From: Akkermansia muciniphila
GTDB taxonomy: Bacteria; Verrucomicrobiota; Verrucomicrobiia; Limisphaerales; SXTU01
Length of the DNA: 64,000 nucleotides
NCBI GenBank assembly: GCA_945874145.1
Contig: CAMCFN010000015.1
Span: forward strand, 1,183 to 65,182
Reading direction: 5' to 3'
This document shows, one piece after another, positions 18,666 through 63,461 of this stretch (within the stretch, counting starts at the first letter, position 1; every line of letters begins with the position of its first letter). A program made the translations under genes and the position numbers. The notes under the pieces were generated by a model. That model made no database searches, was not told where the DNA came from, and saw only the letters and a program-made list of their open reading frames with translations.

Positions 18666-19898
18666 TCACTTCACCTGAACGCAGACCAAATCACCGCGCG
18701 AGTTGCGGCAATATACCCGGCCATGGGCCAGCACTGGCACGGTCCAGCAGCGCCCACCGAGCACTTGATGCCGGGCGGTCGGCTTGAACTCGCCGGGATT
18801 GGCGGGAGCCGTGAGCAACTCGCCGCGCTCACTTAGAATTACCAGCACGCCATCCGCCGTGGCCATGACTGAGCCGCAGCCCAGCCCAGTGCTGGGCGGC
18901 ACGCGCCACTTCTCCTTACCGCTCGCGAAATCCAGACACACGAACTCCGTGGGGCGACCGCGATGTGCGGTGCCATCAAAACCGTAGAGATGTCCGTCGA
19001 TCAGCACGCTGTTGTTCATGTGGTTGCACAGGCGCCTGTTTTCGTAGGTTTTCTTCAGTTGGTCGCCAGCCAACTCGAAGAGCCCGCAGCCGCGATCATA
19101 GCCGGTGGAGATGAAAAGCTGCTGGCCTTGAATGATGGGCGTGGTGGCCGTGGTGTCGAACGCCGTCTTCCAATCGGTGGTGGCCACGGTGGTTCCATTG
19201 CCTGCGTCGAGCACCACCAGGCCTTCGGTTTTCATAACCGCCACCAGCTTTCGCCCGGCCGCTACAAAGGCTTTCGGCGTGCCATAGGCCGGGGTGAAGC
19301 GCTGCCCCTTCCAACGCACTTTTCCCGTGTCGGCATCGAGCGCGAAGGTGGCTCCGGCTTCGATGAGCAACGTGTTGTCGTTCAGGAAATAGGGCGAGCA
19401 GGCGAAACCCCACTCGGGCGGCGCATCCAGTTCCGCTTCGGCGAGCATGTCGCGCTGCCAGATCGCTTTTCCCGTCGCGGCGTCGTAGCAATGCAGGCGT
19501 CCGTGCTTGCTGTAGGTGAAGACCTGCTGGCCACGCACCGTCGGCGTCGCGCCCGGGCCGCCTTCGTAAAAGCGGTCGAGTAGAGGCGCGGCGTAACTGT
19601 GATGCCAGATCTCCGCACCCGTCTCGGAGTTGAAGCACCAGAGTGTTTCCGTCCCGTCCTCCTTGCCTCCGCTGTGCCCGAGCGTGAAGACCCGCCCCTG
19701 GGCGACGGCGACCGAGGAGAAGCCGGTGCCCACTTTTTTCTGCCAGCGAAGCTGGGTGAAGTCAGGCTTGGCCGGCAACCGTTCGCTGGTGATGCCATCT
19801 TCATTCGGCCCGCGCCACTGCGGCCAGTCCGCGCCTGAGAGGCCGGGAAGCAAGGCGAACACTTGCAGAACGAGCCAGGCGAAGCAGCGGTGAGGCAT
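18666..19898 (-). CDS. PQQ-like/BamB beta-propeller repeat protein
   Basis: ADWPQWRGP start, repeated D..TG...W motifs and WTVPVLAHGRVYCRN end. Confidence 0.88.
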   Translation of the reverse strand: MPHRCFAWLVLQVFALLPGLSGADWPQWRGPNEDGITSERLPAKPDFTQLRWQKKVGTGFSSVAVAQGRVFTLGHSGGKEDGTETLWCFNSETGAEIWHHSYAAPLLDRFYEGGPGATPTVRGQQVFTYSKHGRLHCYDAATGKAIWQRDMLAEAELDAPPEWGFACSPYFLNDNTLLIEAGATFALDADTGKVRWKGQRFTPAYGTPKAFVAAGRKLVAVMKTEGLVVLDAGNGTTVATTDWKTAFDTTATTPIIQGQQLFISTGYDRGCGLFELAGDQLKKTYENRRLCNHMNNSVLIDGHLYGFDGTAHRGRPTEFVCLDFASGKEKWRVPPSTGLGCGSVMATADGVLVILSERGELLTAPANPGEFKPTARHQVLGGRCWTVPVLAHGRVYCRNSRGDLVCVQVK

Positions 19899-20034
19899 AG
19901 GTGGCGGAGGTTGTTCCTGCGATCCGGGACTTTCCAATGGATGTGTCGGCAGTTGAGGAAGTCCAGTCGCCCTGCGGCTACCGGTCATCGGCGAGGCGTG
20001 CCGGAACCACCCGGAGTCAGCTGCCGCTAGGGGG

Positions 20035-21060
20035 TCAGAGCTTCACTCGGGCGAGGTAAATCGCGGTCTTCCCCTCGTGGGACGAGTAATAGCTGATCCA
20101 CAACTGGCCGTCATGCCAGACCATGCCGGGATAGCTGCTGTCCCCGCTGCTAGCCAGATCGAGCAGTGGGCGCAGCTCGCCCTTTTCCACGTCGAGTTCA
20201 CATACGACGGTTTTGGTCTTCTTGTCCGGCCCGTGATTCTGCAAGCGGCCGCAGGCAATCCATCGGCCGTCGGGGATTTGGATGAAGTTGGGTCCACCGA
20301 AATATTTGCCCAAGTCCTTCCACTCCCATTCATCGTAGGGAAGTTTTCGGCTGATACCGAGCAAGGCGGTGTTCGAGGGTTTGCCGTCGCGGCGTTGGAG
20401 GCAATACATCACGCCATCGGGACCAACGCGAACCGTTGCCTCGGTGGGGCCGCCTTCGCTGTGGAGGTTTTCGACCAGCGTATCGTAATCCACGCCGTTC
20501 TTGGTCAGCAGCAGCGTGGTGCCGTATTTCTTTTCAGCGCGGCTGGCCGGGGAGACATCATAGGCCACGCCGATCCCGTTGCTGCGGTGCCAAGTCACGC
20601 GCCACAGCCACTGGTTGGTGGGGCCGACCCAGAAGACTTTGCCCCATTTCTTGCCGTCATCGGACATGGCGACGAAGGACTGGTTTTCCGTTGCCGGCTG
20701 GTTTCCTTCGCGGACCGTTGCTCCGCCAAGCAGCATCAGCCGGGGCGTGCCCGGCATGACGGTGATCTTTGGGTCGCGCAGGTCAAAGCCCGGCATCTCC
20801 AGCCGGGCGGTGGATTCCCACCAATAGCCAGTGTCGCTGGTCAGCACGCGCACCGCACCATCGGGCGAGACGTGACCGGCCCCCTCGCGGAACACGCAAT
20901 ACCAGCGGTCTTTGAAGCGCACAAGATCGGTGAACGCATTGTGCGGAGCGGCGTCCCAAATCTTACGGTGTTCCACCAGTCGGGCGGCCGGGGGAGGGGT
21001 TTCCGCAGCGATGGCGGGCAGCGCGGCCAGCAACCAGGCGAAGGTCAGGCGAAAGTTCAT
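20035..21060 (-). CDS. Secreted sialidase-like (BNR/Asp-box) propeller protein
   Basis: HNAFTDLVRF, SDTGYWW, SDDGKKW, DLRDPK and GDSSYPG. Confidence 0.8.
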   Translation of the reverse strand: MNFRLTFAWLLAALPAIAAETPPPAARLVEHRKIWDAAPHNAFTDLVRFKDRWYCVFREGAGHVSPDGAVRVLTSDTGYWWESTARLEMPGFDLRDPKITVMPGTPRLMLLGGATVREGNQPATENQSFVAMSDDGKKWGKVFWVGPTNQWLWRVTWHRSNGIGVAYDVSPASRAEKKYGTTLLLTKNGVDYDTLVENLHSEGGPTEATVRVGPDGVMYCLQRRDGKPSNTALLGISRKLPYDEWEWKDLGKYFGGPNFIQIPDGRWIACGRLQNHGPDKKTKTVVCELDVEKGELRPLLDLASSGDSSYPGMVWHDGQLWISYYSSHEGKTAIYLARVKL

Positions 21061-21153
21061 GCCCGTGGTTCTAACGCGTTGTTGGGCGAGTTACAACTGT
21101 CCCCGTTGCGAGTTTCGACTTTGAACCCTTGGCGCGCTGCCTAAACTCCCGGC

Positions 21154-22203
21154 GTGCTCAACGACTTCACGCAGCAACTTCAGCAGGGCATCGCCCTCGC
21201 ACCCAGCCAAGTCACGACCGCCGTGAGTGCGCTGGTGGAGGAGGCCGTCGCGGCCGAGCTCAAGGCGGCCTTCCTGACCGCACTGGCGCAGAAAGGCGAG
21301 ACGACGGAGGAACTGGCGGCGTTCGCCCGTGAGTTGCGTGCCCGCTCCGTGCCGGTGCCGGTGGACGCGGCCACCCGGGCGGGGGAAATTCTCGACGTGT
21401 GCGGCACTGGCGGTGACCGGTTGAACACCTTCAACATCTCCACCACCGTGGCGCTGGTCTGTGCGGCGGCGGGCGTGACGGTGGCCAAGCATGGCAACCG
21501 CGCCATCACCTCGCAGTCCGGGAGTGCGGATGTGCTGGATGCGCTGGGCGTGTCCGTTGAGTTGTCGCCGGAGCAGGTGGCGACGGCGCTGCGGGACCGG
21601 CGGTTTGCCTTCCTGTTTGCGCCCAAGTTTCACCCGGCGTTCAAGCACATTGCTCCGGCACGCAAGCTCTGCGCCGAGCGCGGCCAACGCACGATCTTTA
21701 ATTTCCTCGGCCCGTTGCTGAACCCGGCGCGGCCCAGCGCCCAGCTCATCGGGGTGCCGCGGCCGGAATTGTGCGAACCGATGGCAAAGGTGCTGCAAAG
21801 CCTCGGAGTGCGGCGGGGCATGGTGGTTTGCGGTGAGGTGCCGGGGGCGGACGGCCCGGCATTTTTGGATGAGCTGTCCACGCTCGGCGAGACGACCATT
21901 GCCGAGTTTTACCACGATCGTGGCTTTGCCGTGTCGAGGCTTTCGCCGAGCGCTTTCCCGCTCCAAACTGCAGCACTGGCGGATCTTGCCGGGGGAGACA
22001 AACACGCCAATGCGGCGATCATCCAGCGGCTGCTCCGGGGCGAGGAGCGCGGGGCCAAGCGGGACGCCGTGCTGTTCAATGCCGCCGCCGCCTTGTTTGT
22101 GGCTGGGCGAGCCAAGACATTTTCGGAAGGGTGGGAATTGGCGGAGTGCGTGCTGGATGAAGGGACGGCGGCAGCCAAGCTGGGCGAGTTGAGCGGTCAT
22201 TGA
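21154..22203 (+). CDS. trpD: Anthranilate phosphoribosyltransferase
   Basis: DVCGTGGDRLNTFNIST, KHGNRAITSQSGSADVL and RTIFNFLGPLLNP. Confidence 0.96.
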   Translation: MLNDFTQQLQQGIALAPSQVTTAVSALVEEAVAAELKAAFLTALAQKGETTEELAAFARELRARSVPVPVDAATRAGEILDVCGTGGDRLNTFNISTTVALVCAAAGVTVAKHGNRAITSQSGSADVLDALGVSVELSPEQVATALRDRRFAFLFAPKFHPAFKHIAPARKLCAERGQRTIFNFLGPLLNPARPSAQLIGVPRPELCEPMAKVLQSLGVRRGMVVCGEVPGADGPAFLDELSTLGETTIAEFYHDRGFAVSRLSPSAFPLQTAALADLAGGDKHANAAIIQRLLRGEERGAKRDAVLFNAAAALFVAGRAKTFSEGWELAECVLDEGTAAAKLGELSGH

Positions 22204-37938: not shown

Positions 37939-38685
37939 TTATCGCTTGGCCGAAGCAGCGTTCCAAACTTTGAGGTCGTCGAAGAAGCCGTCCTTGCCGG
38001 CGACGCCGAGTTCAATCTTGGACTTGGTGGCGTGGGCGATGCCGGAGGATTTCAGGTAGCCAGCGGGCTGGCCGTCAATGGTCACGCGCATCTCATCGCC
38101 GACGGTCTCGACGACGAGGGCATACCACTTGCCGGCTTCGAGCTTCGCAGGATAGGTGACGGTGCGGCCCTTGAGCAGCGCGGCGCGCTCGGCTTTCTTC
38201 TCCGGCTGCTTGTTCATCGCGTAAATGTCGTTGCGCATGGTGCCATCGCGCTCGTCGATGAGGGTGACGCCGTTGAGACGGACCTGCGCACGGCAGAGAT
38301 GACCATAGTGCGCACCGGTGTATTTGCGGTCGTCGAACTCGACGTCAATCATGGTGGCCCCCGCGAACTTGATCTTCACTTCGACGACGCTGTCCTTGGT
38401 GGGGATTTCGAGGCCATGCACGGCGGCGTGCGCCCGGATCACGGACTTGCCGTCGGCGCTGGGAACGTCTTTGTCGCGGGTCTGCGTGCCCTTGAGCGCG
38501 CCATTCTCCACGGCGAAGGTGGGCACGACCTTATGCCAGACCTTGTCCGGCGTGGGGCCTTGGAAGTCATCGGCGAACAGCAGTTCCTGCTTCTGCGCGA
38601 TGGCTTTGACGGGGACAGGCGGCAGCTCGGCGGCGAAAGTCAGGGAGGTGGCAACGAGACTGAAGGCTAGGAGGCGAGGTAGCAT
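37939..38685 (-). CDS. Secreted beta-sandwich (DUF1080/ConA-like) hypothetical protein
   Basis: Signal peptide, LLFADDF, GKWYALVVE and FDDLKVW. Confidence 0.7.
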   Translation of the reverse strand: MLPRLLAFSLVATSLTFAAELPPVPVKAIAQKQELLFADDFQGPTPDKVWHKVVPTFAVENGALKGTQTRDKDVPSADGKSVIRAHAAVHGLEIPTKDSVVEVKIKFAGATMIDVEFDDRKYTGAHYGHLCRAQVRLNGVTLIDERDGTMRNDIYAMNKQPEKKAERAALLKGRTVTYPAKLEAGKWYALVVETVGDEMRVTIDGQPAGYLKSSGIAHATKSKIELGVAGKDGFFDDLKVWNAASAKR

Positions 38686-51866: not shown

Positions 51867-54206
51867 TTATCGGGCTGGATGAATGACTTCGTGCGGCCTT
51901 AGCTCGGCATTGCCCACTAGGTCGGTCGCTTGGGCGAGGTAGCGTCCGTCGGCGGGCGCGTTCAGCGTAATGATCCAGTCCGCGACCCCGGCGTGCTGGG
52001 TGGTGATCGTGGCGGGGCGGCCATTGACCGAGACGGTCGCGATCTGGCCGTTGTCATGGGAAACGCCACGCACGGTTCGTTTAGTGTCCGCAATTTGGAT
52101 GCTCGTGATCAAGGTCGCGGGCGGCAGATCATCCACGGGCGCGAGCAGCTGTGGGAAGACGATGCCCATCGCGTCGGTGGCGCGCGCTTCGGGGCCGGTC
52201 CAGCCATCAATGTTGCGATAGGCTCCGTCTTTCATGGCTGCGGCAGCGTTCACGCTCGCAACGCGTGTCACCGTGCCGTTTGCGGGGATCCCATGAAAAT
52301 AGTAGCTGACGGGATGCTCGGTCTTGCGCGTCCGGGGACCACCGCCGAAGTCCACGACCCCGCCTTCGCGTGAGACGCTGTTGGTGATGGTGACGCTGCG
52401 GAAGTGCGCCGCGAGGCCGGGCTTCGGCGAGATGGCTGTGAGTTGAACGAGGGGATCACGCTTCAGTGCGCAGTCGGCAAAGGTGAGGCGGTCAAAGGTG
52501 AAATCACCATAGGGAAGGCTCAGTTCGTCATGGCCGCCGTTGATTGGCTCGGCGGTGACGTTGTGGAGGGCGATGTCGCGATACACATGAACATCGAAGT
52601 CCGGGTGATAGATGCCAAACGCGGCGTCCTTGACCCGCAGGCCATCGAGCAGAAAGAACCGCACGTTGGGCCGAAGCGCATAGTGCGACGCCCACGTGCG
52701 CAGGTTGCGGACGATGAAGGGATGCTCGCGGTCGCCCTGCACGGAGCCGGGCTCCTCGTCACCGAAGCGAAAGTCGAACAACCCTTCGCTGTGGGACTCG
52801 TTGTCCTCGAAGCGGAGGAACGGCAGCGTGCGCACGTCGCGCTGGGCGACCTGTCCGTCCGGGGAACGCAGCCGGAGGACGGGGTCAAAATCGGGCGTCT
52901 TGGCGAGGTGGAAGTGGTAGCCATAACGGTCGTTCTCGCACGCGACATTGCGGGTGAGCGTGTTCCGCCCGTTGGCCCACCAGAAGCCCGCGCCGTCGTT
53001 GGGATCGTAGGACAGCACCTGCTTGGGCAGGGGCACGCTGCCGAAGGATTGCACGGCGAGGTTGCGGTCCAGCACGTTCCATTGTTCGGTCCCGTCCTCG
53101 AGGAAGAAGCCGTGGCCGCGCGATTGGTAGCCGACGCAGTCACGGACGAGCAGGTGGTCGGTGCCGTGGATGGTGACCCAGCGGTTGTGCGAATCCCAGA
53201 TGCTAACGCCGAGCACGCCGCTGCCGCGCATGGTGTCGCGCACGAGGTGGAAGTGGATCGCGTATTTGCCGAGCACGCCGTCCTTGCCCAAGTGCCGGAA
53301 CTCCGCGTAGCTGATGCCGCCGGATGAGTCGCGGTGATACATCGTGTGACCGCGCACGCCGGCCGGGTCGGCGGACTCGATGACGACATTGCGCGAGAGG
53401 TTGGCGACTTCGCAACGCGTCCACCCTTCGCCTTGGTGGGCCTTGTTGAGCGGGCGATCCAACGTAAGCACCGCGCCTTCGACGGCGGTGATCAAGCGCT
53501 CCTCTGTGCCCACCGGCTTCTGCCGGCCAAACTGCCGTTTCTGAAACGTGGTGCCGGACTCGATGGGGTGCCACTCGCCCGAGGTGATGATGAGGCGATC
53601 GCCGACGCGCCAGCCGACCACCGGTTGCTCCACGGTCACATGGAGGTCGCCAGCCTTGGCGGGCGTGGCGAGCTTCAGCCAAGTGCGGTTCATCGGCGCG
53701 CCATGCACGTCCCAGCGTCCGCCGCAGGCGATGATGGCGGGCAACGTCTCCGGGTTCGTGCCCTTGAAATGCCGCAGCCGGATGGTGGCTTGCACGCCCG
53801 CAGGGATGGGCGATGCCTGGGTGCCGATTTCGAGCACCGGCAGCGCAGTGCCAGCGGCGGGCGCGGGTGCGGCATCGTGGCAGTCGAAGCCGTCCTCCGT
53901 CGTGGTCTCACCGGGTTCGATCTTGATGAGGCCGACGTCGATCAAGGTGGAGACTTCCCGCGAGAACGTGAGCTTGCCTGCGACGTGGAGCATCCGCAGG
54001 GCGGCGGGTGAAGCCACATCATAGGTGACGACGTGACCGGCACGCACCTGGACGAAGTCACCGGCCTGCGGCTGACGCCCGCCGGCCCAAGTCCGGACGT
54101 CGGACCATTTGCCGCTCTGCGCCGTGCGGGCGTTGAAGACCACGGGTTCCGCCGCGAAGAGCGCCGTCGCGAACAGCCACGCGCAAAGAGTCGGGAGATG
54201 CTTCAT
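51867..54206 (-). CDS. Secreted G8-domain / parallel beta-helix protein
   Basis: Signal peptide, SGKWSD..TW..GRQP..GD.V.V.AGH.V.YD (G8), EVANLSRNV, LGKYAIHFHL and HNRWVTIHGT. Confidence 0.85.
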   Translation of the reverse strand: MKHLPTLCAWLFATALFAAEPVVFNARTAQSGKWSDVRTWAGGRQPQAGDFVQVRAGHVVTYDVASPAALRMLHVAGKLTFSREVSTLIDVGLIKIEPGETTTEDGFDCHDAAPAPAAGTALPVLEIGTQASPIPAGVQATIRLRHFKGTNPETLPAIIACGGRWDVHGAPMNRTWLKLATPAKAGDLHVTVEQPVVGWRVGDRLIITSGEWHPIESGTTFQKRQFGRQKPVGTEERLITAVEGAVLTLDRPLNKAHQGEGWTRCEVANLSRNVVIESADPAGVRGHTMYHRDSSGGISYAEFRHLGKDGVLGKYAIHFHLVRDTMRGSGVLGVSIWDSHNRWVTIHGTDHLLVRDCVGYQSRGHGFFLEDGTEQWNVLDRNLAVQSFGSVPLPKQVLSYDPNDGAGFWWANGRNTLTRNVACENDRYGYHFHLAKTPDFDPVLRLRSPDGQVAQRDVRTLPFLRFEDNESHSEGLFDFRFGDEEPGSVQGDREHPFIVRNLRTWASHYALRPNVRFFLLDGLRVKDAAFGIYHPDFDVHVYRDIALHNVTAEPINGGHDELSLPYGDFTFDRLTFADCALKRDPLVQLTAISPKPGLAAHFRSVTITNSVSREGGVVDFGGGPRTRKTEHPVSYYFHGIPANGTVTRVASVNAAAAMKDGAYRNIDGWTGPEARATDAMGIVFPQLLAPVDDLPPATLITSIQIADTKRTVRGVSHDNGQIATVSVNGRPATITTQHAGVADWIITLNAPADGRYLAQATDLVGNAELRPHEVIHPAR

Positions 54207-54235
54207 GACGATGAACCTTGTCCGGTCGGGCGTGG

Positions 54236-54883
54236 TCACTTCGTCTTCTGCACGCCGAGCTCGATCCGGGTGTTGTTGTCGTCGCCTTCGCCGTAAATGG
54301 TGACGATCGTCCCTTCCTTGACGGTGGCCAAAACTTTCTCCGCGGCGCCAACCAGCTTGAACCCGCCGCCATCAATACTTTCGAAAACCGGGAGGCCTTC
54401 GGGAAACTTGTTGAAGTGAAGATTGCTGCCATAGCGTTTGGTGAACGCGTCGGGGAGGTCTTTTCCCATGATCATCAGCCGGTCATTTTTGAAGGATATG
54501 AAGGTCCCAGTGACGCGTTCTTTTCTGGCCCCAACGCGGATGAGCGCCTTGCCTTGGGTGACCATGACATAGGCGTCGGCTTCCACCTTGCTCAAGCCTT
54601 CAGCCGTGCCCGAAGGTTTGTATTCGCCGGCGGCGTGGTCCCAGTGAACGACCTTGGTTTTGTCGGTGAGGTTGTGCCACACGAGGATGCCGTGATTGCC
54701 CCGGAGGGTCAGTGTGCCGTTCTTGAAGGATACGAACCGGCCAAACCCGTGCTGTTCTTTCTGGTCGGTCACCGTTGACGTCTCGGCGGCTGCGAGCGTC
54801 CACGGGGCGAAGCCCAGCAGGAGCAGGGCGACGATGCAGGGCACGATGCTGTAGGTGAGGATAGGGCGGGATACGAGTTTCAT
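54236..54883 (-). CDS. Exported protein, free paralogue of the BlaR1-like C-terminal domain
   Basis: Sec-type signal; FVSFKNGTLTL...GTFISFK...ESIDG...KEGT...RIELG. Confidence 0.85.
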   Translation of the reverse strand: MKLVSRPILTYSIVPCIVALLLLGFAPWTLAAAETSTVTDQKEQHGFGRFVSFKNGTLTLRGNHGILVWHNLTDKTKVVHWDHAAGEYKPSGTAEGLSKVEADAYVMVTQGKALIRVGARKERVTGTFISFKNDRLMIMGKDLPDAFTKRYGSNLHFNKFPEGLPVFESIDGGGFKLVGAAEKVLATVKEGTIVTIYGEGDDNNTRIELGVQKTK

Positions 54884-54948
54884 AAAACACATGGCTGACA
54901 CGCTTCGGCTGGGTGAACCATGCGCTGCTGACGCAGCGCAGGTCTGGG

Positions 54949-55590
54949 CTACTTGCTCTTCGGCACACCGATCTCGATGCGGGTGATGTTGTCATCGCCC
55001 TCGCCGTAAATAGTGAGGATGGTCCCTTCCTTGACGCGGGGCAAAGCCGTCGTCGGGGTGCCGGCCAGGGTGAAGTCCCCGCCATCAATGCTTTCGTAAA
55101 CCGGCACATCGGCGGCGAATTTGTTAAAGTGGACCTGGTTGCCGTATTTCTTCACGTAGCTGCCGCCGAGGTTGGTGCCGAGGAGCAGCAGCCGGTCGTC
55201 CTTGAACGAGACGAAGGTGCCTGTGGTGCGCCCCTTGCGTGAGCCGACGCGGATCACCGACTTGCCGCCACCGACCATGACCCAGGCGCCGGCCTCGATC
55301 TTGTGCAGGGCTGCGGCGTTGCCGGCGGGCTTATACTCGCTGGCGGCATCGTCTCAGCGCAGCACCTGCGTCTTTTCCGTGACGTTGTGCCACGCCAGCA
55401 CGCCGTAATTGCCCTTGAGCGTCAGCGTGCCGTCCTTGAAGGACATGAACTTGCCGCGCCCGGGCTGGTCTTTCTGGTCCGCCGCATCGGCCGCGCGCGC
55501 GCCCATGGTGACGCCGAGCAGGGCGATTGCTCCCAGCAGGAGGCCGAAGGTGAGGAAGCTCCGACGAGATGCAGGATTAAGGTGGTTCAT
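54949..55590 (-). pseudogene. Second free paralogue, interrupted by an in-frame TGA (55354-55356)
   Basis: ORFs 55354..55590 and 54949..55278 share a frame. QVLR*DDAASEYKP aligns with KVVHWDHAAGEYKP. The signal has a twin-Arg-like SRRSFL. Confidence 0.85.
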
Positions 55591-55624
55591 GACTGAGGAT
55601 TCGATCGAAGTGAAGACTGGGCGG

Positions 55625-57151
55625 CTACTTCTTCTGCCCGATTTCGATGCGGATGAAGCTGCCGTCTCCCGGTCCGTAGTAAACCTTGACCAGCGTGCCT
55701 TCCTTGAGCTTGGGCAAGATCGCGGCGGGAGTGCCGGCCAGCGTGTATTCGGCGCCATCAATGCTTTCAAACACCGGGACGTTCTCGGCGAACTTGGGAT
55801 AGTTGAGCTGGTTGCCGTATTTCTTGGTGAAATTGCTCACGGGGAGATCTTTGCCAAGCAACAGGAGTCGGCCTTCCTTGAACGATACGAAGGTGCCCGT
55901 GACGTGGCCCTCTTTTTCCACGCTGACTCGGATGTGCGCCTGATTCTCAGCCACAAATATCCACGTTCCAGCCGTCACTTTGCTCAACGCGTCGGCGGGA
56001 CCGGTGGGCTTGAAGTCGCGGGCGGCGTTGTCCCACTGAAAGACCTTGGTGGTTTCGGCGAGGTTGTTCCAAACCCGCCTGCCGCCACTGCTCTTGAGCG
56101 TCAGCGTGCCGTCTTTGAAGGAGACGAACGCACCCCACCCAGCCTGACCGGACTTGGCCTCCTGCGCCCGCGTCGCGCCGACCACGGTGAGTGCGGCGAT
56201 CATTATTGCCGCAGCCAAGCTCCACACCGGATGTGGACGGCGATGTGCGGCAATGGCGCGAATGCGCGAGCGCATCCCGGCGCGCGCGAAAATGCCGACG
56301 AAGGCTAGGCTCAAGCCCGATTTGGCCCCGGAGTTTTGCAGCTTTAGCAAGGCATGGCCGTAATCGGCGCGGCGGTCCTCCGTGTCGGCTCCGAGCACCT
56401 GGGCATCGCACGCTGTCTCGCGGTCCGCCCGCATGCGGGCGAAGGCCAGCCAGAGCAGCGGATTGAACCAGTGCACGGCCTGGAGCACGCACAGCAGCCA
56501 GTTCAACGGCAAGTCGTGGCGTTTGAGATGAGTGAGTTCGTGCAGCAAGACCATGCGCGCCTCATTCGCAGAAAATCCCTCGGGGAAGCCTACCGGCAGC
56601 AGTAGCACCGGACGCAGCAATCCAGCCACGGCCGGGCTGTCCACGGCGGAAGACACGATCACTTGGGGCACGCGTTTTACGCCAAGTTGCTGCGCGGCCC
56701 GGGCTACCGACTCGTTGATCGCGCCGCTGGTTGCCACCGCGCCACGCGTAATGCGGCACAGAACCCGCCGATAGCCGACGCCACCGACGACGAGCACGCC
56801 GCACGCCCCCAGCAGCCATGCGGCAAATAGGAATTGCAGTCCGCTCACCTGCCAAGATGTGGGTTGCGCCACCTCCGGGATTTGCCCATTCGATTCCGAC
56901 ATAGCGGTGGACTGTGACTCGGCCAACCAGCTCCCCGACTCAGTGAGGAAACGATTCTCCACGCTGAAGCGGCTCGCGGGCAACATCGGTGCCAGCAGCA
57001 CCAGCACCACCGGCAGCCACAAAGCATGACGCCATCGCGCAGGCAGCCAGCGGACAAGGACGAACTGCAGCCCCAGCACCACGAGGGCGAGCACCGATGC
57101 CCGCAGGCTGGTGGCGAGCAGCCATTGGAAGAAAGTATCGAGTGGGTTCAT
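55625..57151 (-). CDS. BlaR1/MecR1-like M56 metallopeptidase with an unrecognised C-terminal extracytoplasmic domain
   Basis: SPAVAGLLRPVLLLP, VLLHELTHLKRHD, HWFNPLLW, RETACD and YGHALL, then a TM helix and a ~180-aa domain. Confidence 0.92.
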   Translation of the reverse strand: MNPLDTFFQWLLATSLRASVLALVVLGLQFVLVRWLPARWRHALWLPVVLVLLAPMLPASRFSVENRFLTESGSWLAESQSTAMSESNGQIPEVAQPTSWQVSGLQFLFAAWLLGACGVLVVGGVGYRRVLCRITRGAVATSGAINESVARAAQQLGVKRVPQVIVSSAVDSPAVAGLLRPVLLLPVGFPEGFSANEARMVLLHELTHLKRHDLPLNWLLCVLQAVHWFNPLLWLAFARMRADRETACDAQVLGADTEDRRADYGHALLKLQNSGAKSGLSLAFVGIFARAGMRSRIRAIAAHRRPHPVWSLAAAIMIAALTVVGATRAQEAKSGQAGWGAFVSFKDGTLTLKSSGGRRVWNNLAETTKVFQWDNAARDFKPTGPADALSKVTAGTWIFVAENQAHIRVSVEKEGHVTGTFVSFKEGRLLLLGKDLPVSNFTKKYGNQLNYPKFAENVPVFESIDGAEYTLAGTPAAILPKLKEGTLVKVYYGPGDGSFIRIEIGQKK

Positions 57152-57171
57152 GGTGTGACAGGGTGGCTGGC

Positions 57172-57555
57172 CTAGCTTCGGTTCTTGAGTGATTGATCGA
57201 GCACCCTTTTCAGCTCGCGCACTTCCTCCGGCGTGAGCTGCGCATTCTGCGCGAAATGGACGAGCAGCGGCTTCGAGGCCCCGCGAAACACCCGCTGTAT
57301 GAAGGATTCGCTCTCCGCGCCCACACATGTCTCGCGCTTCACCGCCGGGGAGAAGACCCGGGTGCCGCTGGCGTTCTCGTCCGTCTTCAGCGCGCCCTTC
57401 TCAACCAGTCGAGTGAGCAGTGTGCGGACCGTGTTCTCCGCCCAGTTCGTGGTGGGGCGCAGGCTTTTGGTGATCTCCGACGCGGTCTGAGGCGCGCCCT
57501 GCCAGAGCGCCTCCATCACGACCCATTCGGACTCGGAAATATCAGGTGGTTGCAT
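57172..57555 (-). CDS. BlaI/MecI/CopY-family repressor
   Basis: ISESEWVVMEALW, WAENTVRTLLTRLVEKG and LTPEEVRELK. Confidence 0.95.
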   Translation of the reverse strand: MQPPDISESEWVVMEALWQGAPQTASEITKSLRPTTNWAENTVRTLLTRLVEKGALKTDENASGTRVFSPAVKRETCVGAESESFIQRVFRGASKPLLVHFAQNAQLTPEEVRELKRVLDQSLKNRS

Positions 57556-57570
57556 GGCGGTGGAAGAACT

Positions 57571-57608
57571 ACTACATCAGTAGTGGACAAGTCAACTACG
57601 GATGTAGT
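57571..57608. promoter_or_regulatory. Twin BlaI-type operators flanking the -35 element
   Basis: ACTAC-atca-GTAGT (57571-57584) and ACTAC-ggat-GTAGT (57595-57608), with minus-strand TTGACT between them. Confidence 0.85.
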
Positions 57609-57953: not shown

Positions 57954-60900
57954 CTACTTGGACCGACCAAACCGGCCAAAAAGTGCTGGCAGTAGGAAGA
58001 GGTTGAGGAGGGTCGAGGTCGCAAGTCCACCGAGAATCACCAAGGCCATCGGGCGCTCGATTTCGTTGCCGGGCACGTTGCCCTTCAGCACCAGCGGCAG
58101 CAGCGCGAACGCGGCGGTGGTGGCAGTCATCAGGATGGGAATCAGCCGTTCCTCGCTGCCCTTCAGGATGAGGTCGAGGCCGAAAGCGTGCCCTTCCTCC
58201 CGCTCCAAGTGCCGGTAGTGGCTGACGAGCAGGATGCCATTCCGGGCGGCGATGCCGAGCACGGTGACAAATCCGACGAGCGAACCGAGCGACAGCACGC
58301 CGCCGCCCAGCCACGCTGCGAACACGCCGCCAATGAGTGCGAAGGGCAGCGTGAGCGCGATGATGAGCGTGAGGCGCAGGGATTGAAAGTCAGCCAGCAG
58401 CAAGACGAGGATGCCCGCCAGCGAGGCGAGCGCGAGCCAGCCAAGGCGTTGCTGTGCGGCCTGGCGCTCCGCCCACTCGCCGAGGATTTCAGGATGGTAG
58501 CCGCGCGCGAAGTTCACCTTGCCGACCCGTTGTTCCACGTCGCGAACCACATCACCCAACGCACGGCCACTGACGTTGCAGGTCACGTCAATGCGCCGCG
58601 ACGCCCCTTCGCGCTTGATGGCGTTGGGCGTGGGCACGATGGCGAGGTCGGCCACATCGGCGAGGCGCACATGGCCGCCGCGCGGCGTTTCGATGAGCAG
58701 GTCGCGCAACGTGGTGTAGTCGGCCCGGACGTGGGGCAGGCTCCAGACGGCAACATCATGCACGCGCTGCTCCTGATAGACCTCGCCAACCTTGCGACCG
58801 CTGATGAGCGTGGTCACGGCCTGACGGACCTGTCCGGCGGTGAGGCCGTGCAACGCGGCGGAGTCCGGGCGCAGTTTGACGGTGATTTGCGGCACGAGCG
58901 TTTGCGGTTCGACCTTGAGGGCGCTGACGCCGGGCGCGTCCTTCAACGCCGCGCCCACCTCGGCGGCCTGGCGGCGCAGCATTTCAAGGTCCGGGCCATA
59001 GATGCGCACCACAATGCTCGCACTGGCGCCGGTAAGGACTTCCTTGATGCGTTCGCGGAGAAAGGTCAGCAGGTCGCGCACCAAACCGGGATAGCTGTCC
59101 ACCACCGCCTGCACCTTTGCGATGGTCGAGTCGTAATCGGCATTCGGGTCGATGCTTATCCAAAGCTCCGTGAAGTCCGGCCCGACCACTTCATCCGCCA
59201 CTTCGGCGCGGCCGATGTGCGCGCCCTGGTTGCGCACGCCGGGCACCGCGAGCAAATCCTTCGCCGCGGCGATGGTGATGCGCGTGCTGGCCTCTACGGA
59301 CGTGTTCGGCTTCTCCAGCCAGTGCATCAGAAAGTCGCGCTCCTTGAAGTTGGGCAGAAATTCCTCCTTCAACTTCGTCTTCCAGACCCAGCCGGAACAG
59401 GCGAAGGCGAGCGCCAGAATGCCCACCGCCAGCCAGGGACTGCGTGCGAACACCGGGAGCACGGCGCGATAGGCGGCCTTCATGCCGCGCGTGAGCCAAG
59501 CCTCGCGGTGCTGCGTGGCCTTCACGTTGAGGAGCATCAGGCACAGCGCAGGTGTGAGCGTGAGCGCCACCGCCAGCGAGGCGCCGATTGCGAGGATGTA
59601 GGACAAGGCCAGCGGCCGGAAGAAAGTCCCCGCCAGTCCGGGCAGGAAGAACACGGGCAGAAACACCAGCACGATGATAACGCTCGCATACACCACAGCG
59701 CTGCGGACTTCGAGCGAGGCGTTGAGGACGACTTGGAAGCGCGGGAGCGGATTCGCCAGCGCCTGGTTCTGCCGCAACCGGCGAAGGATGTTTTCCACGT
59801 CAATGATGGCGTCGTCCACCACCTCGCCGAGCGCGATGATCAGGCCGGCGAGAATCATCGTGTTGATGGTCTCGCCGCGCCAGCGGAGCAGCAGCAGGGC
59901 GATGGCGAGCGACAGCGGGATGGCCGTGATGCTGATGAGTGTGGTGCGCCAGTCGCCGAGGAACAGCGCGAGGATGACCACGACGAGCAGACACCCGAGC
60001 CAGAGCGCCTCGGTGAGGTGGTCGATGGAAAGTTGGATGAACGTGGCGGGCCGGAAGATGGTGCTGTCCACGTTCACGCCGGGCAGTCCGGGCTTGAGTT
60101 CGGCGAGAACCTTCTCGACGCCATCAGTGACATCCAGCGTGTTGCCCCAGGGCTGCTTTTCCACGATGAGCAGGATGCCGATGCCGTCGTTGATGACTGC
60201 GTCCCCGATGGGCGCGGGATGGCCGATGCGCACCTCCGCCACGTCACCGAGCCGGATGGGTGCGCCGTTGCGGAACTCCACCACCGTGCGCGCCAGATCT
60301 TCGGGAGTGGTGATGAGGCCAAGCTGCGTGACACTCAGGCGCAGATTTGGCGTGTCAATGAAGCCGCCGGGACTGAGGACCGCCGCATCGCCCGCCGCGC
60401 GCGTCACCGCGTCCAGCGTCACTCCGGCGGCGCGGAGCCGCTGCGGGTCCACGAGCACCTGGAATTGCTTGTCGCGCTGGCCCCAGATGGCGACGTTTGC
60501 CACGCCCTTCACGGTCATCAGGCGCGGGCGGATGGTCCACAACGCCAGCTCGCTGAGTTCCATTTGCGAGAGTGTCTTGGACGTGAGGCCGACTTTGAGC
60601 ACGCGGCTCAGGGAGGAATACGGGGCCATCAAGACCGGGGGCTTCACCACGGCGGGCAGCCGGGTTTGTGCGAGGTTCAACCGCTCCTGCACGAGCTGCC
60701 GCGCCTTGAGAATCTCGGTGCCGGTGTCGAAAATCATTGCCACCGAGGAGAGGCCGAGCACCGACTTCGAGCGGATGGTTTTGAGGAATGGCAGGCCGTT
60801 GAGCGAATTTTCCAAGGGCACGGTCACCAGCGCATCCACCTCCTCCGTCGAGAGGCCGGGGGCTTCCGTCTGCACCTCCACCAGCGGCGGGGCGAACTCG

Positions 60901-61019
60901 GGGAAAACGTCCAGCGGCGCATGGCGGGTGGCGTTGATGCCCACGACCAGCAGCGCCACGGCCGCCGCGACGACGAGCACGCGCATGTTAAGCGCCCAAG
61001 TGACAAGTGAGTTCAGCAT
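57954..61019 (-). CDS. CusA/CzcA-type (HME) RND efflux permease
   Basis: [43 protein letters not shown] and [10 protein letters not shown]. Confidence 0.93.
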
Positions 61020-61037: not shown

Positions 61038-62024
61038 TTACTTCCCCGTCATAAATTCCGTGCCGAACAACTCAGCGGAGCCGTCCGTGACAATCTTGGC
61101 TCCGACCGGCGGGCCGCTGGTGAGCACGGCGTCGCTGCCCGCCAGCCGCGCAACCTGGACACGGCGGCGTGTGTAGGTGTGCGGCGCGGTCTGCTCATAA
61201 ACCCACTGGCCGCCGTGGATGTCGTGCAGCACGGCGCTGAAGGGCACGACAAGGCGTTCAACTTTGCTGTCGGGCGTGGTGATTTCCACCGCGACGCGCT
61301 CGCCGGCCCGAAGCGTGCTATCAGCTGGAAGTTCGTAATACCAATCCACCGTGTTGGCGGCGGCGTTGGCGGTGGGAGGGCCAGCGACAGGCCCCGCACT
61401 TTGGCCATTGCCCGTGGCGGTGAGTGCGCGGAAGGAGACGTTTGACTTCGCATCCAGCAACGCCGCCTCGCCGCTGTAGATGGCGACGCGGAGCCACGCA
61501 CGTTTTGCGCCGCCGGCCTGGCCGACCGGTGAGCCGAGGATTTGGCGCTGGGCCTTGGCCGCCGTCAGCGTGGCCTCGGCGAACGCGAGCGCGGCCTTGG
61601 CCTCATCCACGGTGCGCACGCTGCCTGCCTCGGCCTTCAACATCTTCTGCGCACGTTCGAGGGCGATGTGGGCTGCCTCGATTTGCACCTGCGCTTGCAG
61701 CATGCGGCCATCGGCGGCGGCTTGGAGGTCCGCGAGCCGCAACACTTCCTCCAGCGTGCCGCCCAGCACCGGCGCGAGGCCGCCACCCGGCCCCGACAAC
61801 GGCACGACCACCTCGCCGGCGAAAAGCCGGCTGGCCGGGATGGCGCGGCGCTCGACGGGCACCACCTTCAAGCGCAGCCGCTGCTCAGCCTCGGGCTTGA
61901 GGAGGAGGACGACCAAGTCGCCCTCCTTGGTCACGGTGGCGGGAGTGGAAGCGGCGGGTGCGGCGGGCAGCCAGAGGACGGTGAACGGCAGCGCGAGTAG
62001 TAGGAGGGACAAGCGGGTTTTCAT
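61038..62024 (-). CDS. RND membrane-fusion (periplasmic adaptor) protein
   Basis: Alpha-hairpin, LVVPFSAVLHDIHGGQWVY and IVTDGSAELFG. Confidence 0.85.
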   Translation of the reverse strand: MKTRLSLLLLALPFTVLWLPAAPAASTPATVTKEGDLVVLLLKPEAEQRLRLKVVPVERRAIPASRLFAGEVVVPLSGPGGGLAPVLGGTLEEVLRLADLQAAADGRMLQAQVQIEAAHIALERAQKMLKAEAGSVRTVDEAKAALAFAEATLTAAKAQRQILGSPVGQAGGAKRAWLRVAIYSGEAALLDAKSNVSFRALTATGNGQSAGPVAGPPTANAAANTVDWYYELPADSTLRAGERVAVEITTPDSKVERLVVPFSAVLHDIHGGQWVYEQTAPHTYTRRRVQVARLAGSDAVLTSGPPVGAKIVTDGSAELFGTEFMTGK

Positions 62025-62048: not shown

Positions 62049-63461
62049 CTATGGCTTCGCAGAAACGGGCGATGGGGAGTGGGTGGGACGCGGGTTGCTT
62101 TGAATGACCTCGGTCAAGGGGGCTTGCACCGCGTCCTCCAAGGCGGCGAGGGCCAGTCGGGCCTTGACCTGCGCGTCCAGCCGCGCGAGGTGCGCGGTAA
62201 GGTATTCAAGTTGCACGGTCAGAAGCGCGGGCTTGGCCGCCTCGCCCGCTGCAATCATGGCCTTGGTGAGGTCCTCCTGTTGCCGCAGGCGGGCCAGCAA
62301 CGCGTCCGCTGCACCGGTCTTGACCAGCACTGCGTGATACGTGGCCAGCGCGCGGTCAATGTCCGCGACTATCCGCGCCTGCAACGCGGTGAAGCGCGTG
62401 GCAGCTTCCGTCCGCCGGGCGGTCGCCTGCGCTATCGCGCCCTGGTTCTGGTTGAAGATCGGCAGCGTGGCGGTGAAGCCGAGCCGCCACTGGTTTTCGT
62501 CCTGGTCGAGCTGGTAGCCGGGGCCGAGCTGCACGTCGGGATATTGCCGGGCGATTTCCAGTTGCAGTGCCGATTGCGCGGCGGCGTAGTCTGCCAAAGC
62601 GCCGAGGACGTCCGCGCGATTAAGCAGCGCCTGCCGTCGCACCTCGGGCGCGGGCAACGGCGGTGGCGGGTCGGTGTCGGTGACGAGGTTCACGCCCGTC
62701 AGCGCCCGCGCGGACACCCCGAGCGCAGCGGCGAGCTGCGCCCGGGCCTCGGCGGCCTGCTGCTGCGCGTCCACCATCGCGAGGGGCGTGGTCTCGATGG
62801 CCACGCGCGCTCGGGAGACTTCCAGTTGTGATGCCCCGCCTGCGGCAAGTTGGTCTTCGAGCACTTTGACCAAGCTGGTCTGAATGGTCTGCTGTTGCGT
62901 GAGCAATCGTTCCATTTCCCGCGCCGCTTGGAGGTCCAGCAAGCTGCGGCGCACCCGGCTACGCACCTGCCACGCCACGGTGGCGAGGTTCAACCGTGCT
63001 GCGTCAGAAAGCTGCCGGGCCTGGGTGAGGCGATGGCCCCGCTTGCCTGCGGTCTCGATGGGGATGTTGAAGTTCAATCCGAGCAGCCACGGCGGGCCGA
63101 CTCCGGAGCTGCGGCCAGGCTGAAGGGTGACCGTTGGGTTGGGCCGCTCTCCGGCGGTGACTTGCCCGGCCTGAACCACGCCCCAGCGAGCCCGGGCCAC
63201 ATCTAGGTCAGGATGAAAGTAAAACGCGGCGCAGGCGAGCGCATCAAAGTCCCAAGCCGCCAGCGGCCACACGGGCAGTTCCCGGTGAAGATTGGCCGCG
63301 AGGAACTGCTTCAATCCCACGTCCGCCAGCGAGCGCGATTCAATGTCCACCGCCGTCGTCTCGGGAACGAGCGGTTGGGGTTGATAATGCGCGCATCCCG
63401 CCATCGTCAGCAGACCCAGCTCGGCTGCCAGCGCGACCGCGAAATTGCTCATCTTGATCAT
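62049..63461 (-). CDS. TolC-family outer-membrane factor (lipoprotein)
   Basis: MAGC lipobox, HPDLDVARA, RQYPD and LPIFNQNQGAI. Confidence 0.9.
   Translation of the reverse strand: MIKMSNFAVALAAELGLLTMAGCAHYQPQPLVPETTAVDIESRSLADVGLKQFLAANLHRELPVWPLAAWDFDALACAAFYFHPDLDVARARWGVVQAGQVTAGERPNPTVTLQPGRSSGVGPPWLLGLNFNIPIETAGKRGHRLTQARQLSDAARLNLATVAWQVRSRVRRSLLDLQAAREMERLLTQQQTIQTSLVKVLEDQLAAGGASQLEVSRARVAIETTPLAMVDAQQQAAEARAQLAAALGVSARALTGVNLVTDTDPPPPLPAPEVRRQALLNRADVLGALADYAAAQSALQLEIARQYPDVQLGPGYQLDQDENQWRLGFTATLPIFNQNQGAIAQATARRTEAATRFTALQARIVADIDRALATYHAVLVKTGAADALLARLRQQEDLTKAMIAAGEAAKPALLTVQLEYLTAHLARLDAQVKARLALAALEDAVQAPLTEVIQSNPRPTHSPSPVSAKP

Follow-up and report, generated by a model that had tools for sequence, protein, structure and literature searches.

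The locus described here raises the question of what a BlaR-like membrane sensor reads when its outer domain is not a penicillin-binding one and recurs in the same gene cluster as two free exported proteins. The locus lies in a 64,000-nucleotide (nt) stretch of contig CAMCFN010000015.1 (GenBank assembly GCA_945874145.1, filed under Akkermansia muciniphila), which is referred to below as the window. On the minus strand, between positions 51867 and 57608, the list of open reading frames (ORFs) places five genes head to tail: blaI, M56-DOM, DOM A, DOM B and G8. Here, "DOM" is our label for an unnamed exported domain that forms the last ~180 residues of the M56 protein. All five of the closely spaced, co-oriented genes named in the original prediction, which was made from the DNA letters without database searches, are present on this strand, and the locus is composed of the following features:

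57571..57608, no strand assigned: twin BlaI-type operators, two ACTAC-N4-GTAGT palindromes
57172..57555, minus strand: blaI-like winged-helix repressor of 127 residues (PF03965)
56162..57151, minus strand: M56 (BlaR-like) membrane zinc-protease part, residues 1-330 (PF05569)
55625..56161, minus strand: DOM fused to M56, residues ~331-508 (alignment of the three copies; own-genome profile match, E 1.4e-77)
54949..55590, minus strand: free DOM paralogue A of 213 codons; SRRSFL leader, TGA in frame (profile match)
54236..54901, minus strand: free DOM paralogue B, 221 residues from GTG, with a hydrophobic leader (alignment of the three copies)
51867..54239, minus strand: exported G8/CEMIP-type beta-helix protein of 790 residues (PF10162 and PF24606)

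We propose that these genes encode a derepression circuit of the BlaR type, with a sensor domain paralogous to the partner of the G8 protein itself. What the sensor reads would be G8 or its complex with a glycan; the free copies would be accessory subunits or would compete with the sensor. In our judgement, this reading has about an even chance of being correct. The family membership of the proteins and the operators can be read from the sequence, and from these we infer the mechanism.

We scanned one genome per species and obtained 39 related loci (numbered with an L below), 38 of which gave DOM matches in tblastn searches with the window proteins. Based on their record titles, these loci belong to the Verrucomicrobiota and Planctomycetota, with a few Klebsiella and Akkermansia titles taken as mislabelled metagenome-assembled genomes. 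The closest relatives of the cassette, L001-L004, encode 85-95% identical proteins in records titled Klebsiella or Akkermansia muciniphila; their gene content looks verrucomicrobial and the titles are probably wrong.

The first gene of the cassette matches the BlaI profile PF03965 over its full length, with residues 6-121 covering profile positions 1-115 of 115 (E 4.5e-30; 104.8 bits, cut-off 22.6). The NCBIfam models BlaI_of_BCL (E 1e-33) and CopY_TcrY (E 7.5e-21) are also hit, both below their cut-offs. As the original prediction held, twin operators lie upstream of blaI: an inverted repeat with 18-nt arms spans 57571-57608 and comprises two perfect ACTAC-N4-GTAGT palindromes (57571-57584 and 57595-57608), which are 10 nt apart and, as a pair, end 16 nt upstream of the blaI ATG. 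The full-length profile match and the palindromic predicted operators in its own promoter region would assign the protein to the BlaI/MecI/CopY repressors. The palindrome occurs twice in the window, compared to a mean of 0.00 in 100 shuffled sequences. Across the window's own assembly (4.58 Mb, 82% complete), this pair represents the only perfect matches, whereas a control with the pattern reversed gives 5 matches per strand, and the motif is therefore not generally enriched. The window and all 7 of 7 verrucomicrobial relatives with a blaI gene share the operator pair upstream of that gene, amid flanks that have diverged. Perfect copies number two each in L004, L007, L017 and L037 and one each in L016, L021 and L030; planctomycete loci show the same ACTAC half-site beside TTG.

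The cassette genes are separated by gaps of ~20-70 nt or overlap. Copy B has alternative ATG starts 3 and 6 codons inside its GTG start, and the G8 gene begins either at a GTG that overlaps the stop codon of copy B (GTGA) or, 33 nt downstream, at an ATG. No terminator-like sites were found on the minus strand inside the operon. Based on this tight packing, the operators and the lack of an internal terminator-like site, the five genes would constitute a single autoregulated transcription unit.

The second gene encodes a clear M56 protein (PF05569, E 1.4e-60, 205.4 bits), the likely start of which is the ATG at 57151 (508 residues), 20 nt past the blaI stop codon, and not the upstream ATG of a 567-residue ORF. 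A Kyte-Doolittle scan, used here with no topology predictor, gave hydrophobic segments near residues 15-33, 42-60, 107-125 and 309-327, and the zinc motif HELTH (HExxH) is found at residue 204, between the third and fourth of them. The predicted layout is that of BlaR1. By analogy with BlaR1, the fused DOM would be extracytoplasmic, as it comes after the last membrane segment. The original prediction had further stated that the protein carries no penicillin-binding domain, and indeed no Pfam match to a penicillin-binding or transpeptidase domain was obtained, while the NCBIfam model blaR1_generic is covered only from position 6 to 321 out of 585 and scores 160.7 bits, below its cut-off of 400. 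For these reasons we refer to the protein as a BlaR-like M56 sensor protease and not as BlaR1. It is encoded by the only M56 gene of its own assembly, which contains three G8 genes.

In S. aureus, the cognate M56 protease cleaves BlaI between Asn101 and Phe102. The cassette resembles the BlaI-BlaR1 and MecI-MecR1 systems of Staphylococcus and Bacillus (mechanism outlined in PMC7593790) in its winged-helix repressor, in the paired palindromic operators upstream of its own operon, in an M56 membrane zinc protease that has HExxH placed between membrane segments and a C-terminal sensor facing outward, and in a gene for an exported target enzyme within the same locus. It differs from them in that the sensor domain does not resemble a penicillin-binding protein (PBP) or class D beta-lactamase, that there is no beta-lactamase gene, and that the operon carries free exported paralogues of the sensor domain.

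The original prediction had presented this architecture as unfamiliar, a view that does not hold for the regulator: according to the available text of a 2026 survey of ~15,000 M56 proteins with 254 architectures, published with the work on CenIR, a transpeptidase domain is present in only ~6%, the commonest architecture is M56 plus a C-terminal region without an identifiable domain, and BlaI is encoded within 5 genes of ~96% of the M56 genes (PMC13492132). A BlaR-like protein without a PBP domain is, by these figures, ordinary. Likewise, CenIR of C. difficile, PvmSR of P. aeruginosa, mycobacterial BlaIR and cyanobacterial PetRP combine a BlaI-like repressor with an M56 protease and, as far as the accessible parts of the sources go, do not sense beta-lactams; their sensors are described there with no outer domain or a short, largely unstructured one. 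In contrast, the C-terminal region in the cassette is conserved, duplicated, folded-looking (predicted local distance difference test, pLDDT, 76-86), also present as free proteins and tied to one enzyme family. The literature that we searched contained no description of the DOM family, its free sensor paralogues or a cassette of BlaI/M56 and G8; the supplementary tables of the CenIR paper were outside this search and may list the architecture. What is new here is the DOM family, its free sensor paralogues and their tie to G8, whereas BlaI/M56 pairs without a PBP domain were already known.

The three DOM copies of the window align end to end (54% and 49% identity to the first sequence, mean column identity 68%), which bears out the claim that the C-terminal ~180 residues of the M56 protein align with both small proteins, and every motif listed in support of that claim is present. 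The domain, which the original prediction did not recognise, also proved to be unnamed, and no characterised family matched it in the searches made here. The window proteins gave no Pfam match to a named family in the DOM region, nor did any of 33 family members even at E<=10, and no NCBIfam match was obtained. In a profile search of PDB sequences the best matches were two D-Ala-D-Ala carboxypeptidase chains at E ~0.9, which we take as chance.

Comparison of the domain with itself revealed an internal duplication of a ~90-residue module (module 1 against module 2: hhalign probability 97.6%, E 3.8e-12), and some relatives have three modules. We consider DOM a new, small and unnamed family built as a tandem of two beta-rich modules. 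Its most conserved motifs, GTFxSF, KKYG, ESIDGG, KEGT and IEIG, are located in module 2 and are kept in all three copies of the window. Module 1 contains the conserved aromatic residues W75, W87, Y94 and W111, each in 24-27 of 33 sequences, which would suit a glycan-binding face.

Searching 1.84 billion sequences, we found 67 representatives of the family at E<=0.001, 54 of them at <=1e-10; the family comprises 70 clusters of near-equal length. A Pfam scan of 20 of the 67 representatives revealed 13 M56 fusions, one fusion to an extracytoplasmic function (ECF) sigma factor, four proteins without a domain and two repeat proteins. The latter, P0131 (E 3.4e-4) and P0134 (E 8.9e-4), we regard as spurious members. 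In the sigma factor fusion (P0100), the sigma factor is followed by a hydrophobic segment and then by a three-module DOM. Based on its fusions to M56 and to an ECF sigma factor, DOM can be described as the outer domain of two kinds of membrane-tethered regulators.

This occurrence on two transmembrane signalling types also favours another explanation, in which DOM is a stand-alone receptor for a soluble ligand, the fused copy signals, the free copies buffer, carry or act as decoys, and G8 is merely induced without contacting DOM. The available text of the M56 survey points in the same direction, in that a variety of stimuli is proposed there for BlaR-like proteins that carry diverse non-PBP outer domains (PMC13492132). 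We consider such a receptor possible but doubtful, and the genomic linkage of DOM is one of the points that speak against it.

Among the 29 loci with at least 1000 nt of downstream flank, 20 carry a G8 gene downstream of DOM, 17 of them within 200 nt. By comparison, the M56 protease core lies upstream of DOM in 11 and a BlaI gene in 13 of the 29 loci with at least 1500 nt of upstream flank. The full cassette is present in 7 of the 21 loci in which both flanks are long enough, and G8 is found in 8 of the 9 M56-bearing loci with at least 1000 nt downstream. The linkage of DOM to G8 is stronger than its linkage to BlaI and M56, and it persists where the regulator is absent, which is not what a receptor independent of G8 would lead one to expect. 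Since the BlaI/M56 pair is missing from most loci and replaced in L001/L002, the switch is dispensable for the DOM-G8 pair. In five of five searched genomes with DOM but no adjacent G8, a G8 orthologue was found elsewhere (E <=1e-243); in one of them the orthologue apparently shares the contig with DOM, ~8.6 kb further along and past three DUF4838 genes. These results answer the concern, raised with the original prediction, that the domain might be a one-off local duplication: its homologues in two phyla are linked to BlaI/M56 genes and, most strongly, to G8 genes. Genes for DUF1501 (8 loci) and PSCyt2/PSD1 (3 loci) also occur near the cassette; such genes are very abundant in genomes of the Planctomycetes-Verrucomicrobia-Chlamydiae group and were not counted as linked.

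The last gene encodes a protein that matches the G8 profile PF10162 (49.8 bits against a cut-off of 22.9) and the CEMIP_beta-hel profile PF24606 (137.4 bits against 27.3), as well as the beta-helix of the solved TMEM2 ectodomain (chain 8c6i_A, E 8.5e-18) over residues 296-400. A beta-helix of the TMEM2 type is typical of polysaccharide-degrading enzymes, and by this analogy the G8 protein is a probable glycan-cleaving enzyme. The two profiles and the match to 8c6i are shared features with TMEM2/CEMIP of vertebrate hyaluronan depolymerisation; unlike TMEM2, the cassette protein has no detected lectin-like insert, and the match is limited to the residues given above. One group suggested that TMEM2 might need an associated protein (available text of PMC10206443).

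A second G8/CEMIP gene, 62% identical and without a DOM partner, is located on contig 13 of the window's own assembly (G000) at 19612-21939 (L043 7612-9939) amid BNR/GDSL, GlcNAc-2-epimerase-like and amidohydrolase (Amidohydro_2) genes. A third, more distant G8 gene is found on contig 28 beside PA14/PKD/TPR and DUF4159 genes. The flanks of related cassettes contain DUF4838 genes (6 loci) as well as glycoside hydrolase family 6 (GH6), sulfatase-like, amidohydrolase, another beta-helix, and nucleoside-hydrolase-like plus Big_2 genes. For a glycan-related role of G8, such neighbourhoods are hints from context.

We predicted the complex of G8 (residues 32-790) with copy B (DOM_B, residues 46-221), using our own alignments of 14 and 33 rows. 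The three runs gave interaction prediction scores from aligned errors (ipSAE) of 0.00, 0.68 and 0.76, with a median of 0.68, while the best of three controls reached 0.00. In the calibration, which is roughly valid with own alignments, 58 of 80 solved complexes and 2 of 110 mismatched pairs reached this mark. The partner DOM showed a pLDDT of 76-86. On the side of DOM, the predicted interface comprises residues 133-138, 154-160, 174-178, 195-199 and 215-217 of module 2. These residues correspond to the GTFxSF, KRYG, ESIDG, KEGT and IELG motifs, all of them without variation across the three copies of the window. The G8 side comprises residues 226-238, 400-403, 563-574 and 632-639, including the invariant NGGHDE and GGGPR stretches; the invariant DOM motifs face G8 residues 567-572 and 632-639. 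According to this model, DOM probably docks onto a conserved face of the G8 beta-helix via its module 2 motifs. For a ligand receptor that does not touch G8, both the median score against 0.00 for all three controls and the position of the most conserved DOM motifs at the interface are unfavourable, although the single run at 0.00 and the conserved aromatics of module 1, which lie outside the predicted interface, would be compatible with it.

Under the proposed derepression circuit, BlaI would bind the twin operators just upstream of its own gene and repress the whole operon. A trigger on the outer DOM would cause the cytoplasmic HExxH protease domain of M56 to cleave BlaI, and cleavage would result in more free DOM proteins and more secreted G8. 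The sensor DOM would most likely respond to the state of G8 or of its complex with a glycan and not to some unrelated small ligand, with the free copies serving as accessory subunits and/or rivals of the sensor for G8. More tentatively, we suggest that M56-DOM monitors its own regulated exoenzyme: fused and free DOMs would compete for one face of G8, and whether G8 is free, bound to DOM or on glycan would set the proteolysis of BlaI. The original prediction had described an analogous circuit for a ligand, with the free copies as possible effectors, carriers or decoys. The BlaI/M56 circuit with a non-PBP outer domain stands, but in the complex prediction DOM looks like a partner of G8 and not like a free-standing receptor or decoy.

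Such a sensor would have parallels in the sensors of Bacteroidetes polysaccharide-utilisation systems and in the titration of CpxA by CpxP, where the sensor shares a ligand or partner with the system that it controls. The likeness is one of analogy only, in that the outer sensor domain would recognise what the operon's soluble proteins also recognise; the cassette differs in having proteolysis of BlaI as its output and a paralogous domain as the shared element.

Several observations weigh against the proposed circuit and the DOM-G8 contact on which it draws. M56 and BlaI are missing from most DOM loci (present in only the 11/29 and 13/29 counted above), and the close relatives L001/L002 lack blaI-M56 and have other genes in its place. 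Seven loci with at least 2500 nt downstream show no adjacent G8, and a scan for sigma-70-like promoters found no site. With regard to the structural model, one of the three runs scored 0.00 and the agreement between runs was as low as 3% of contacts; the score expresses the confidence of the model and is not a measurement, and the DOM that was modelled is the free copy B, not the M56-fused copy. Most of the contacted G8 residues are also invariant in paralogues without a DOM partner and may be catalytic or structural. We also compared 13 DOM-linked G8 proteins with 4 G8 paralogues without an adjacent DOM, which are 50-62% identical to the window G8 (one from the window's genome, three from same-genus genomes without a DOM match). 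In this weak test, based on few sequences and with no significance test, 4/17 conserved interface positions (24%; G400, S401, E572 and T637) differ in the unlinked proteins, compared to 45/406 (11%) overall, which is a modest enrichment. Finally, the literature searched gave no enzymatic activity for any bacterial G8 protein, and in the available text of PMC10206443 the active site of TMEM2 itself is unassigned.

The genes upstream of the cassette suggest a further explanation. Directly upstream and co-oriented, the window contains a CusA/CzcA-type heavy-metal permease of the resistance-nodulation-division (RND) type (57954-61019, minus strand; TIGR00914, E 7.2e-188, below the cut-off), followed further upstream by a periplasmic adaptor (61038-62024, minus strand) and a 470-residue ORF (62049-63461, minus strand). 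In L015/L037, a different RND pump and an RcnA-type Ni/Co exporter occupy the equivalent position. It is conceivable that DOM is a CusF/DUF5666-like periplasmic metal-binding barrel and that the BlaI/M56 pair senses metal, like the copper-responsive PetR/PetP of cyanobacteria; BlaI-family CopY and PetRP are linked to copper (available text of PMC7896320). The nearest clusters of DOM in the ESM Atlas, by features and by structure, carry the labels DUF5666, CusF_Ec or DUF1344, at scores <=0.90 and template-modelling (TM) scores <=0.49, and serve as leads only. None of the 33 DOM sequences matches the corresponding DUF5666/CusF-like barrel families PF18914, PF11604 and PF07076 at E<=10. No Cys or Met column reaches 60% in these sequences, and His does so at H162 only (21/33). 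The window BlaI is without a C-terminal Cys motif, and the G8 partner has no known metal role. Moreover, the window and L015/L037 are the only loci with RND and RcnA neighbours. L015/L037 share ~98% identical neighbour genes and count as one lineage, so that two lineages in all have such neighbours, and other flanks differ. Beyond the five cassette genes, no window ORF of at least 150 residues ending past position 38000 is common to more than 3 of the 39 loci; owing to this lack of wider synteny, the RND pump is treated as a neighbour and not as part of the cassette. Overall, we judge a metal-stress function to be improbable.

Regarding its distribution, the cassette was detected in 4/19 other genomes of the same genus, in 0/21 other genera of the order and in 0/200 sampled genomes of the phylum. 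It is a rare cassette of lake Verrucomicrobia and Planctomycetes. The DOM-adjacent G8 orthologues of the two phyla are 66-88% identical to the window G8, with a mean column identity of 76%. Because the cassette is rare and patchy, yet its G8 proteins are this similar across two phyla, we assume that it is an accessory element that moves horizontally.

Patchy accessory cassettes in which tandem genes for small exported paralogues directly precede one for a large exported enzyme are also reminiscent of effector-immunity loci. In that case, G8 would be a secreted weapon degrading envelope glycans, the tandem DOMs would be periplasmic inhibitors that plug its active face, in line with the predicted position of DOM on conserved G8 residues, and M56-DOM would detect the G8 of competitors. 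Antagonistic effectors usually diversify, however, which the G8 orthologues have not done to judge by the identities given above. The 62% identical paralogue sits in a catabolic-looking cluster without DOM, and no secretion-system, Rhs or other delivery genes were found among the flanking genes scanned. We therefore regard a weapon and its antidote as improbable.

The three copies of the window have separate histories. A quick maximum-likelihood tree was built from tblastn pieces of at least 150 residues with at least 40% identity and near-full query cover; it leaves out fragments and the three-module type. Only its three starred clades were used, as the automatic labels for free and fused copies are partly wrong (tandem second domains appear as "fused" and the L016 M56 protein as "free"). 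The window's copies fall into three separate, well-supported verrucomicrobial groups of M56-type, A-type and B-type; the M56-type clade comprises 14 rows and the B-type clade 8 rows, with Shimodaira-Hasegawa-like approximate likelihood ratio test (SH-aLRT) values of 98 and 97, respectively. This separation indicates that the paralogues are old and separately maintained.

As to their origin, the leader of the free DOM in 6 planctomycete loci is homologous to the M56 tail including the last membrane segment (44-64% identity over 43-77 residues), and the same SAM-x-F-M-K-L-V-S-R-P start is retained in copy B of the window. The free DOM genes thus originated as 3' partial duplicates of the sensor gene. 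In L008, L009, L012, L013, L015 and L018, the first "free" DOM gene (~215-260 residues) falls into the M56-type clade and resembles a sensor gene from which the protease part has been lost; no blaI is present in these loci. Four Chthoniobacterales loci carry an A-type copy fused in frame after M56-DOM via a short linker, with no leader in between; this tandem M56-DOM-linker-DOM arrangement is seen in L007 (5694-7883), L010, L016 and L017 (6054-8546), and the M56 protein of L016 shows an internal deletion of the protease core.

L001/L002 contain an extra three-module DOM gene between copy B and G8 (L001 8663-9580), and its leader matches the N-terminus of the window G8. Given this match between the two leaders, the window lineage has probably lost the three-module gene by a leader-to-leader deletion, as far as can be judged from the sequences. 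The C-terminus of the ECF sigma factor P0100 is of the same three-module DOM type.

Copy A contains a single in-frame TGA at 55354-55356, exactly where all of its relatives have a conserved Trp. In the contigs of 4/4 other public runs from two studies, position 55354 of the plus strand reads C instead of T, which yields TGG; in run X2 the C accounts for 69.6 of a depth of 69.6. Since all four runs read TGG, the TGA is confined to this assembly, as either a strain variant or an error, and copy A is intact in the population. A pseudogene can accordingly be rejected for the population at large and may apply to this assembly. The SRRSFL leader of copy A (55500-55590) is twin-arginine-like (TAT_signal, E 0.012, below the cut-off) and is kept in some relatives only; copy B has an ordinary hydrophobic leader, unlike that of copy A.

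According to the available text of the M56 survey, BlaIR-type switches form a large signalling family that is for the most part uncharacterised, and the signal is known for almost none of the systems that do not respond to beta-lactams (PMC13492132). The cassette offers a tractable case among them, as its sensor domain is defined and conserved, the paralogues of this domain are soluble and amenable to purification, and the co-encoded G8 protein is a concrete candidate contact. It adds a new protein domain family of ~67 clusters at 50% identity to the databases. If M56-DOM does monitor its own exoenzyme, as suggested more tentatively above, the cassette would represent a circuit of partner titration in the periplasm that arose by duplication of the 3' end of a sensor gene, and bacterial beta-helix proteins of the CEMIP/TMEM2 type would work as complexes with a small two-barrel partner. 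The cassette would also give a first handle on the function and the possible partner-dependence of the bacterial relatives of CEMIP and TMEM2, whose catalytic mechanism in vertebrates is disputed.

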